A stretch of 63,826 nucleotides of DNA, filler included, from Reclinomonas americana ATCC 50394 (taxonomy: Eukaryota): NCBI GenBank assembly GCA_048213135.1. It is 12 parts of 12 records of this genome, joined end to end, with 100 filler letters (N's around TTAATTAATTAA, not from the genome) between each part and the next. Parts side by side here need not be neighbours in the genome. Positions count along the whole stretch, not along the records: positions 22,995 to 27,885 come from AFZH01018167.1; positions 27,986 to 32,985 come from AFZH01018168.1; positions 33,086 to 42,067 come from AFZH01018170.1; 9 more parts are not named here. The stretch is one strand, 5' to 3'. A program made the translations under genes and the position numbers. Below are positions 23,298-38,186 of the stretch, piece by piece (position 1 is the stretch's first letter; each line of letters opens with the position of its first letter). The notes below the pieces were generated by a model. That model saw only the letters and a list, made by a program, of their open reading frames with translations, made no database searches and had not been told where the DNA came from.

Positions 23298-23734
23298 CTG
23301 CACGTCTGACATGTGCCCATTATAGCCGTCACGTGGAATCAGATAATTTTCGTTCATCAGGTGGCCATGCGCTCCTCCACTAACAACAAGGTTCTGCCCG
23401 TGGCCCACGTAGTAGAGCAAAACGATACGCTGCTGATCAGCGTCAATGGTGTAACCACTATGCAGCGGGGCGGGATCACGGGAGTAGGTGTCTCTGACAA
23501 AGGGAATCACTGTCCCACTCCACCACTCCTCAAAGTCGCTCTTTGTCTGGAACCTGTCTGTTGCTGGAAGGTATTGCCAGCCCGCATCACGGAAATATGT
23601 GGTCATCAATTCTGAGCAGCGGGTGAGTGAGCGAGGGGATCAGACAACACGAGAGTGCAAGAATGAAAGAACACACCAACAGGTATGGCTCTCGTGTCGT
23701 CATCTCCGAGGAGCACAGCGATTCGTTTCGCCAT
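23298..23734 (-). CDS. Caspase-family (C14, para/metacaspase-like) protease, copy D; 3' part lost in gap
   Basis: Exons 23734-23677 (MAKRIAVLLGDDDTRAIPV) and 23611-23298 (ELMTTYFRDAGW...VLLYYVGHG...ENYLIPRD) splice in frame. Confidence 0.8.
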
Positions 23735-24395
23735 GGGTGCGTCGAAGCGGATGCGTGCGAACTTCGAAAAATACGATCGCAATAAGAGATGTGATTATGT
23801 AAAACACCGCAGCAGGACATTGTTCTCTGTCTGCGAAGTCACCTGTTAAAACCGTGGCGGATCCAACGCAGTGCTTCACGCGTAAGAACGCGTGTCACTC
23901 TTGCCAACTTGCTACCAGAGTGTGTCGTCGCGAGCTGGCATTCTGCGAGGCAGACGATGTGAGGGGAGAGAGAATGAAGGAACAACGAACAGCGCAGTTC
24001 TGCGCCTTGCGAACTGTCAGAATGCAAGCCGAGTTCTGTGAGCTCTACGGCGAAACAAAATATGGAGACGACAGCTGCTGGTGATAGTCCACTTGCATTA
24101 CTTAACGTAAACGTTCAGTAAGCTCGGTGGGGAAGACGGTTCAAGACAATACAGTATGAAAGACAACTACTACGCGTGCTGCTCTTTTGACCATCTGAGA
24201 GGTGCACCAGCGGTCAAACAGGCGACAAACACACATTCAATGCACCACATGCAACAAAGATCCACGCAACTGCGATGATCCAGGCTGTGTGTGCCAGAAC
24301 ATCGAGTGACTCGAGAAAGCAACCACGACAAGATCATTATGCACAGCATCGCAGCAGCAGTCATTCATAGTCCATCAACAAACAGAGGCAGCATG

Positions 24396-36300: not shown

Positions 36301-38186
36301 ATGGACAGCGTGTTGTGAGTGGGGGTGAAGACAAGACTGTGCGGGTGTGGTCGCTGGCAAGTGGCGAGGAGGTGCGACGACTGGAAGGCCACACCGCGCA
36401 GGTGAAGTCTATTGCTGTCACTCCTGACGGTTGTCATGTTGTCAGTGGGGGGGAGGACAACACTGTGCGTATGTGGTCACTGACCAGTGGCAAGGAAACA
36501 CGGCTGTTGGAGGGACATACTGGTGGGGTACTAACTGTTGCTCTCACTCCTGATAGTCGGTACATTGTCAGCGGTAGTTGGGATAAAATGGTGCGTGTTT
36601 GGCCGCTGTCGCATGAAGAAGAAGTCCGTCGATTGGAAGGACACACAGAGTCGGTGATGTCTGTGACTGTCAGTCCCGATAGTCGCCATATTATAAGTGG
36701 AAGTTCTGATGCGACTGTGCGAGTGTGGGTGTTGGCAAGTGGGAAGGAAGAGCGTCGGTTGGAGGGACACGCCTGGGGGGTGCGGTCTGTTGCCATCACT
36801 CCCAATGGACAACACATTGTCAGCGGGAGCGAGGACATGACCGTGCGAGTGTGGTCGGTGGCAAGTGGAAAAGAAGTCCGGCAATTCCAAGGACATGCTG
36901 GTTGGGTGTCGTCTGTTGCCGTCACTTCTGATGGTCAGCACGTTGTGAGCGCCAGTTATGACAGAACTATACGCATCTGGTCACTGGAGAGTGGAGATGA
37001 AGTACGGCGCCTGGAGGGGCACACAAGTTGGGTGTACACTGTTGCTGTCACTTGCGACTGGCAGCACGTGGTGAGTGGAAGTTGGGACAAGACATTGCGC
37101 GTGTGGTCAGTGGCGAGTGACGAAGACGTGCGACGGTTTGTAGGACATAGCGAAAGAGTGCGTTCGCTGGCCACGATAATCGATGCTCAACACATTGTGA
37201 GTGGAAGTCATGACTATAGTATTCGAGAGTGGTCAGCAGTGAGCGGAGAAGAGGTGCGGCGGATGGAGGGACACACTGATTACGTTTTGTCTGTGGCTCT
37301 TTATCTGCCTAGCATGCAGCTTGGTAGCGGTAGTGATGACAAGACAGTGCGGATATGGTCACTGGCAAGTGGCGATGAAGTGCGACGGTTGGAGGGACAC
37401 ACTGGAGGAGTATTGTCCGTCGCCTTCGCTCCCGATGGCCAACATATCGTGAGTGGAAGTTCTGATAAAACTGTGCGTATCTGGTCACTGGCAAGTGGCG
37501 ATGAAGTGCGACGGTTGGAGGGACACACTGGCTACGTCTGTGCTGTTGCAGTCACTCCCGATGGCCAGCATATTGTGAGTGGTAGTGCTGATAAGAATGT
37601 GCGAGTTTGGTCACTGGCGAGTAGAGAGGAAGTGCGACCGTTGGAGGGACACACCGGTGCTGTGCTTTGTATTGCCGTCACTCCCGATAATCAACACGTT
37701 GTGAGTGGCAGTGCTGACATGACAATACGGGTGTGGTCATTGGCGAGTGGGGAGAAAGTGCTTCTAGTGGAGGGACATGTCTGGGATGTACGATCTGTCG
37801 CAATCAGTTGTGATGGTCAGCACATTTTGAGCGGCGGCGGAATGTTTGACAGGACTGTGCGATTGTGGTCACTGGCGACTGGGATTGAACTTGGACAGTT
37901 GCACGGACACACCGACTCCGTGAACTCAGTTGCTTTCGCATTCGACGGTCAGCATGTCGTGAGTGGGAGTGATGACAAGACAGTTCGACTGTGGTCACTA
38001 GCGACTGTTACGGGGATGCGCTGTAACACGGTAGCCGACGCAACCGGTGCATCTCGCACTTACCCCACTGCAACCAAAGATACTGTGCGAGCATCTGACT
38101 TGTCGGCACGGAGGTCGCAGCACGAAAACTTGCTCGAGCGAGTATATGGCTCATTCTTGCCAGATTTCACCGACGCTTTGTATTAG
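33335..38186 (+). CDS. NLR-like STAND protein: caspase (C14) - NACHT - pentapeptide repeats - 14x WD40; 5' exon(s) in gap
   Basis: Exons 33335-33453, 33604-33830, 33899-34014, 34092-34192, 34264-34458 and 34615-38186 splice in frame (all GT-AG). Motifs: KRVALLIGN...LRNPERD, LLFFSGHG, LLMNCCR, Walker A GNSGAGKT, Walker B LLLLDGYDE, VTCR, SNPFLL, pentapeptides GADLRDA/GADLREV/EADFRGAD, 14 GH...W repeats. Confidence 0.9.
36261..38005 (+). repeat. 14 tandem 126-nt WD40-coding repeats with high internal conservation
   Basis: 42-aa units GHxxxVxSVAxTPDGQHxVSGSxDxTVRxWSLASGxEVRRLE. A 50-nt block is identical at 37356-37405 and 37482-37531. Confidence 0.93.

Follow-up and report, generated by a model that had tools for sequence, protein, structure and literature searches.

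The window analysed here, a 63,826-nt stretch of the assembly of Reclinomonas americana ATCC 50394 (GCA_048213135.1), contains between positions 23,298 and 38,186 four tandem minus-strand genes (A to D) for standalone proteins of Peptidase family C14 and, oriented away from them, a plus-strand gene whose product joins an N-terminal C14 protease to a NACHT NTPase domain, pentapeptide repeats and WD40 repeats, in the manner of a NOD-like receptor (NLR). What is new in this locus is a spliced eukaryotic form of a known bacterial protease-NLR, with orphan-like C14 paralogues beside it. We favour, with modest confidence, the reading that it comprises a cluster of paralogous C14 proteins (clan CD, caspase fold) together with a eukaryotic version of a bacterial all-in-one sensor-protease, the two being adjacent by descent. 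An earlier note on this DNA had proposed a protist immune or cell-death locus, with the NLR-fused protease as a ligand-activated initiator and the arrayed proteases as its effectors or regulators.

The plus-strand gene yields an open model of 1442 aa, in six exons separated by five introns. The C14 module (33335–34458) spans five exons (33335–33453, 33604–33830, 33899–34014, 34092–34192 and 34264–34458), of which the first carries a RVALLIGN beta strand and an NPERD loop, the second the motif FFSGHG and the third LLMNCCRS. The last exon, of 3.6 kb (34615–38186), encodes a linker, the NACHT domain, the pentapeptide repeats, 14 WD40 units and a short tail before the stop codon. Pfam, applied exon by exon to contiguous window sequence, bears out the caspase-NACHT-WD40 order reported in the earlier note and adds the pentapeptide repeats to it: Peptidase_C14 (PF00656, cut-off 21.4 bits) reached 39.9 bits on one exon (E 4.9e-10), NACHT (34797–35279) 32.3 bits (E 1.1e-7, cut-off 26.7) and the pentapeptide repeats (36069–36170), which lie between NACHT and WD40, 26.9 bits against a cut-off of 20.2, whereas WD40 matched in 14 stretches with an E-value of 1.6e-148. 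With a Walker A motif (GNSGAGKT, 34815–34838) and a Walker B-like motif (LLLLLDGYDE, 35019–35048), C14 upstream and WD40 downstream, the protein belongs to the NACHT-clade NLRs among the STAND (signal transduction ATPases with numerous domains) NTPases. The WD40 units (36261–38057) are 40–76% identical to one another (mean 57%) and 13 of the 14 are exactly 42 aa long, which appears in the DNA as a tandem period of 126 bp; they are enough for two seven-bladed propellers. The first assembled exon (33335–33453) has no ATG and is preceded by an in-frame stop, and the start exon is therefore missing from the assembly.

For the minus-strand array, exon peptides of copy A were translated by eye from the sequence and compared with the whole window using tblastn. 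Exon 1 of A, which carries the catalytic His, matched four places (E 2.9e-80 to itself, then 6e-55, 7e-42 and 1.5e-37), and the Cys exon, exon 3 and exon 4 matched three places each; beyond the array copies, the next match to these peptides anywhere in the window had an E-value of 0.08 or worse. The resulting spliced models reproduce exactly the limits previously assigned to four tandem paralogues, have GT-AG boundaries in all 15 introns and open frames throughout, and contain the two motifs given in the earlier note, YxGH[G/A] in all four (YYVGHG, or YYAGHA in C) and LLDCCR in the three Cys exons that are assembled. Copies B and C are complete. Gene B (26928–30629, 344 aa) has exons at 30629–30557, 29194–28866 (YYVGHG), 27750–27629 (LLDCCR), 27555–27404, 27344–27025 and 26966–26928, its intron 1 (between exons 1 and 2) crossing the gap at 27886–27985, and gene C (24396–26119, 347 aa) at 26119–26062, 25691–25339 (YYAGHA), 25214–25093 (LLDCCR), 25025–24874, 24812–24493 and 24434–24396. 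Five exons of A are assembled (31285–32773: 32773–32439, with YYVGHG; 32106–31985, with LLDCCR; 31925–31774; 31705–31386; and 31323–31285). Copy D is partial (23298–23734), consisting of exon 0 (23734–23677, with the ATG and the beta-1 strand KRIAVLL) and exon 1 (23611–23298, YYVGHG); its exons 2–5 are missing where the contig ends at the gap 22895–22994, and an intact D would need at least about 0.9 kb inside this gap. The short exon 0 of B, C and D, found by upstream comparison, provides the ATG and a first beta strand KRIA(I/V)L, whereas no copy of exon 0 for A occurs anywhere in the window. The ATG at 32780 is thus no start codon: exon 1 of A starts at a splice acceptor that the four copies have in common.

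The array proteins are about 345 aa long, with an intact His-Cys dyad, a shortened beta-1/alpha-1 loop and a helical insert of about 60 aa preceding the last strand. B, C and D lack an N-terminal prodomain, their ATG lying 2–7 residues ahead of the beta-1 strand. In A, B and C the last exon is a separate micro-exon of 39 nt (31285–31323, 26928–26966 and 24396–24434, respectively, on the minus strand) that encodes a PPVP tail followed by an acidic stretch, and the tail could be a short docking motif. The copies are 50–69% identical at the protein level, with pairwise ratios of nonsynonymous to synonymous substitution rates (dN/dS) of 0.12–0.37 and dS values of 0.6–2.2, a pattern that marks them as old duplicates under purifying selection rather than as decaying genes. 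Non-coding DNA is also alike between repeat units, with 77–86% identity between 24249–24332 and 26774–26858 and between 23779–23931 and 26139–26296, that is, just past the stop codon of one paralogue and ahead of the start of the next; the duplicated unit thus takes in untranslated regions (UTRs) and intergenic DNA. Additionally, a motif search in the window found TGTCCTGCTG-N5-6-TTTACAT three times, only before B (30665–30686), C (26159–26181) and D (23797–23819), on the minus strand and 36–63 nt ahead of the ATG, compared with no match in 100 shuffles, which makes it a candidate for a shared promoter or 5′-UTR element.

To what family the array belongs was examined with a local profile of the C14 domains from seven plasmid-borne bacterial genes annotated as 'caspase family protein' (eight were fetched, and one with a truncated N-terminus was left out); among the matches listed in a tblastn search of bacterial plasmids with the His exon of the NLR gene, 25 of 30 fell under genes of this name. 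The profile was run against the five spliced models, 275 stop-to-stop open reading frames (ORFs) from the window and 900 shuffled sequences. The spliced NLR module scored 71.1 bits (E 5.6e-21), followed by A (33.1 bits, E 2e-9), B (25.1 bits, E 5.6e-7), C (15.1 bits, E 6.6e-4) and D (12.2 bits, E 5e-3), the best of the shuffles reaching 3.1 bits (E 3). The NLR His-exon sequence is contained in one ORF that scored 49.5 bits, and the other ORFs with intermediate scores are assumed to overlap exons of the array or NLR genes. The alignments are colinear, with GHG of the array on GHG of the profile and LDCCR on LDaCRd, and FFSGHG and NCCRS of the NLR module likewise fall on AGHG and DaCRd, so that both catalytic residues are in register. 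When the alignment of A, B and C was compared with that of the bacterial C14 domains by hhalign, the probability was 96.8% (E 2.5e-10) over 137 columns that include GHG and D-x-C-R. Both the NLR module and the standalone proteins A to D are hence assigned to Peptidase family C14, as the earlier note had expected of the spliced products, and the array is predicted to encode proteins of the C14 fold that retain their dyads while being extreme outliers in sequence. Of 30 feature matches of A exon 1 in the ESM Atlas, 28 belonged to the Peptidase_C14 set, with scores of 0.91–0.93, which we take as a lead only; the predicted fold of this exon alone, from an alignment of four sequences, had a mean predicted local distance difference test (pLDDT) value of 45.5 and was unusable.

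The term caspase, as applied to these proteins in the earlier note, holds only in a loose sense. Strict caspases (C14A) have the active-site pentapeptide QACxG and a basic S1 pocket that confers specificity for Asp, whereas the Cys motif here is DxC or NxC (LLDCCRS in A, B and C; LMNCCRS in the NLR) and not QAC. Metacaspases of types I–III (C14B) are marked by a p10 domain that has Ca-binding residues and by a prodomain or linker particular to each type. The match of both the NLR module and the array to the bacterial C14 profile places them instead with the orthocaspase or metacaspase-like proteins of the p20 type. In metacaspases and paracaspases an Asp stands two residues before the catalytic Cys, and in metacaspases and MALT1 it lines an acidic S1 pocket; the array has an Asp two residues ahead of the aligned Cys, as in bacterial DSCRD, and Arg/Lys specificity is therefore the better guess. 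By this analogy cleavage after Arg or Lys would be most likely for the array and NLR proteases alike, and specificity for Asp would be unlikely.

The case for a common origin of the array and the NLR protease module comes from their introns. Four introns lie inside the protease domain of both, and their phases are 1, 0, 2 and 1 in array and NLR alike. Given as columns of the local bacterial profile, intron 1 (phase 0) is at 122–123 in the array and 122 in the NLR, intron 2 (phase 2) at 155–156 and 161, a three-codon offset within a loop, and intron 3 (phase 1) at 196 in both; intron 0 (phase 1) is in either case 10 residues before the G-aromatic pair of helix 1. By a rough reckoning, chance would be very unlikely to produce such agreement across the roughly 230 codons of the domain. 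The matching phases and positions indicate one intron-bearing ancestral gene, and from such an ancestor a paralogue cluster would follow through local duplication and fusion or fission. The C14 module of the NLR would then be a fifth, very divergent copy of the array family.

Several observations weigh against this reading. The NLR C14 module and the array are 22–27% identical in a forced alignment, BLAST aligns their Cys motif alone (E 0.006–0.056), and a hidden Markov model of the array scores 2.2 bits on the NLR protein. Intron 2 is displaced by the three codons mentioned, or by five to six profile columns. As for the fold, single exons of A to D all stay under the Pfam C14 cut-off and several show nothing, the best scores being 17.9 bits for the last large exon of A and 12.4 bits for its His exon; likewise, a profile of exon 1 from A to D found no real relative among 1.84 billion representative proteins, and the residue after the catalytic His in C is A (HA) instead of G (HG). 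Finally, the linkage between A and the NLR gene rests on scaffold order, and both genes lack their 5′ exons.

Under the reading of a paralogous cluster with a sensor-protease, the fused protein would act as a eukaryotic orthocaspase-NACHT-(pentapeptide)-WD40 sensor. Following what the literature on STAND/NLR proteins and caspases suggests, a ligand on the WD40 propellers would free NACHT-driven oligomerisation, which would gather the N-terminal C14 domains and switch them on by proximity. Substrates would be cut after Arg or Lys, by analogy with metacaspases and MALT1, given the Asp two residues before Cys in the array and the Asp of NPERD that the NLR keeps. The standalone proteases would be active enzymes retained by selection, since a decoy role accords less well with their intact dyads and purifying selection. 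That they lie next to the NLR gene would be a consequence of descent; they may also be linked to it in function, whether as its substrates, amplifiers or heterodimer partners, but no observation here requires such a link.

The earlier proposal takes that link as real: once ligand-activated, the NLR-fused protease would initiate a cascade by cutting the prodomain-less array proteins, as executioners, in the linker past their catalytic Cys, in an immune or cell-death response. The standalone proteins do lack a prodomain and keep the dyad, and in A, B and C this linker has conserved Arg residues (P-x-P-R-x-x-V-x-R-x-G), with PRNV at the corresponding spot in both B and the NLR gene, which fits processing by an Arg-directed C14 protease. 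The head-to-head layout would permit co-regulation, and the regular WD40 array with its variable positions resembles those of fungal NLRs. Protease-NLR genes also adjoin the genes of their substrates in fungi and bacteria, although their known neighbours are gasdermins and not proteases (PMC8851545). Tandem duplication already accounts for the adjacency, however, and the dN/dS values are those of ordinary purifying selection, whereas immune effectors typically show a diversifying pattern; moreover, the cascade depends on scaffold linkage across the gap at 32986–33085, and the function assigned to it is a proposal. Because descent alone explains why the genes are neighbours, we regard an initiator-executioner cascade as possible but rather unlikely. 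Its most elaborate version is a two-tier system of a microbial eukaryote, evolved independently of animals and kept at a single defence or death locus, in which a single-chain 'apoptosome' made of a WD40 sensor, a NACHT oligomeriser and an initiator C14 protease would cut, after Arg in the PxPR linker, executioners derived from its own protease module; this we consider unlikely, and a shade more so than a cascade in general.

It is improbable that the array proteins are regulators or decoys that heterodimerise with the protease domain of the NLR and so determine its threshold, in the way that cFLIP acts on caspase-8. Array and NLR protease would share one fold and a common origin, the helical insert and the PPVP tail conserved in A, B and C could be docking elements, and C departs from the others directly after its catalytic His. 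Known decoys, however, usually lose catalytic residues, whereas here the catalytic His and Cys are kept in every assembled copy, and the purifying selection on four copies whose dyads are intact suggests that they are enzymes.

Between the array and the NLR gene lies a joint (32986–33085) made up of a 12-base stop linker with 44 N on either side. All 11 gaps in the window, for instance 5167–5266, 22895–22994 and 32986–33085, are identical in this respect (the linker carries stops in six frames); they are conventional placeholders of fixed size, and their length is therefore uninformative as to the true distance. On the side of A the joint borders on (CA)n/(CAACA)n, on that of the NLR gene on (GA)n. 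Within the scaffold, A and the NLR gene are transcribed in diverging directions, as described previously, and in each the first coding exon is lost at the joint; with exon 0 of A and the start exon of the NLR missing, the gap must hide at least two exons and their promoters. Joints of this type could be examined within single genes in three cases, the one in intron 1 of B and two in RPA1, and all three join colinear pieces, in agreement with the earlier note. RPA1 (55481–59090, minus strand) stays in order across the gaps 55958–56057 and 57287–57386, with Rep-A_N at 58.5–59.1 kb, an OB fold at 57.4–58.1 kb and Rep_fac-A_C at 55.5–56.0 kb, which supports the scaffold order. The adjacency of array and NLR gene is thus likely, and a scaffolding artefact, or a large gap with many genes in between, has little to recommend it: the placeholder, the microsatellites at both contig ends, the missing first exons and promoters and the sequence concealed after D, if that copy is intact, would all allow it, but the three other joints connect colinear pieces, both contigs end within rare C14 genes that point outward and lack 5′ exons, as expected of a divergent pair broken at a repeat, and the common intron structure points to local duplication.

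The closest architecture among known systems is the cyanobacterial orthocaspase-NACHT-pentapeptide-WD40 protein, which shows the same domain order and an N-terminal C14 domain with a His-Cys dyad and which Asplund-Samuelsson et al. (2012; PMC3501461) present as the cyanobacterial variant of a widespread bacterial metacaspase-NACHT-WD40 type. Metacaspase N-termini are also given as common in bacterial STAND proteins in another report (PMC4986451). Compared with the bacterial orthocaspase-NACHT-WD40 proteins, the NLR gene in the window is eukaryotic and has five spliceosomal introns in its protease part. The window itself is GC-rich, at 0.51–0.65 in 2-kb bins, and the short GT-AG introns and CT/GA/CA microsatellites that abound across it identify it as eukaryotic DNA.

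The nearest relatives of the NACHT-pentapeptide part are fungal: of 24 matches, with E-values down to 2.5e-49, 24–31% identity and about 90% coverage, 17 are named Mortierellomycotina, and one is a protein from a Legionellaceae metagenome-assembled genome (MAG). The Mortierellomycotina NLR-like proteins (ARM_5-NACHT-pentapeptide-WD40) have NACHT, pentapeptide repeats and WD40 in the order seen here, but their N-terminus is an ARM-like repeat, in both of the two scanned, and not C14; the C14 module from the window was unmatched in all 24 relatives (best E 0.81). One NACHT-pentapeptide-WD40 relative lists among its precomputed domains PF02338, the OTU family of cysteine proteases, so that a protease may be present in further members of this NLR subfamily as well.

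The fungal HET-Q2-like protease-NLRs are, as here, all-in-one sensor-proteases without adaptor domains and are encoded beside their target protein; according to Daskalov et al. (2022; PMC8851545), however, their proteases are of the S8 or the caspase-related CHAT type and the neighbours are gasdermins that they cleave, whereas the protease here is C14 and the neighbours are paralogous proteases. Animal apoptosomes and inflammasomes (Apaf-1/caspase-9/caspase-3; NLRC4/caspase-1) resemble the mechanism proposed here: in them, too, a caspase-fold protease is activated through proximity by a sensor that combines a nucleotide-binding oligomerisation domain (NOD) with WD40. Animal caspase paralogues likewise stand in tandem clusters, of which CASP8-CASP10-CFLAR is an example, and these include regulators. 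The animal systems differ in that sensor and protease are here a single polypeptide, with no CARD or DED adaptors and with DCCRS or NCCRS in place of QACxG, and the origin of the present system is independent of theirs.

Eukaryotic metacaspase-like proteins (p20 only) and type I–III metacaspases, as treated in a 2017 review (PMC5756287), share with the array the family C14 and its His-Cys dyad; compared with eukaryotic metacaspases, the array lacks a Pro or Zn-finger prodomain and has the shortened beta-1/alpha-1 loop, the helical insert and the PPVP tail. According to the same review, p20-only homologues in eukaryotes are free of additional domains, a generalisation that the NLR gene contradicts if the scaffold is right.

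The earlier note did not recognise this arrangement as described in a protist, and no protist gene of this kind is described in the open-access full-text literature searched. The novelty is nonetheless narrower than that statement implied, inasmuch as C14-NACHT-(pentapeptide)-WD40 proteins are described in bacteria (PMC3501461), and it was overstated with regard to the layout of the locus, since protease-NLR genes beside the genes of their substrates are described in fungi (PMC8851545). Should the scaffold be right, a bacterial-type caspase-fold/NACHT/WD40 death or defence protein would exist as a bona fide spliced eukaryotic gene, whose protease module either gave rise to a local family of free-standing proteases or was taken from it. 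It would then offer a concrete case, outside animals, fungi and plants, of how sensor-protease fusions and multi-step cascades could arise from one gene by duplication.

Other searches for relatives returned few leads. The three matches of the array exon-1 profile were all internally repetitive proteins aligned in four to nine short stretches, and were rejected as spurious. Against PDB sequences, the array profile retrieved two entries that were discarded, a designed WD-like protein in which no stretch passed and a protein unrelated to the array, and a metagenome scan with the same profile gave one locus that was rejected as well, since it has the word DFDEWWS in common with the array but lacks GHG. 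For the His exon of the NLR gene, a word-index search against longer proteins yielded 38 candidates, none at an E-value of 0.01 or better, and the PDB sequences gave weak matches alone, to a caspase-3/6/7 ancestor and to MALT1 (E 0.088–1). The last NLR exon matched three loci in genome contigs through its WD40 part alone. WD40 arrays that are 40–45% identical to that of the NLR occur in contigs filed under a Methanobrevibacter MAG (2907–4826) and a Dehalococcoidia MAG (2479–5078). The NACHT-pentapeptide part matched eight plasmid records by tblastn, through the pentapeptide repeats alone, and the NACHT part gave weak matches in nine of 401 Chloroflexota genomes (best E 2.4e-7, 27–29% identity).

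The genes flanking the locus are ordinary. A Pfam scan of 24 large ORFs identified a kinesin, a phosphofructokinase (PFK), Beta_helix proteins, RPA1, a single-exon fatty-acid desaturase and an LTD/EGF protein; no gasdermin was found among these 24, in a scan that intron-split genes would escape. A search with the desaturase gave 21 relatives, the closest of them at 58% identity. Two minus-strand ORFs, at 45144–46558 and 51158–52456, contain right-handed beta-helix repeats (Beta_helix, E 9.6e-15 and 7.4e-6) and may represent a second local gene family. Lastly, two large minus-strand ORFs without Pfam matches (42389–44155 and 40420–41019) have Cys-rich and hydrophobic stretches, as judged by eye; a membrane protein may thus be encoded immediately downstream of the NLR gene.

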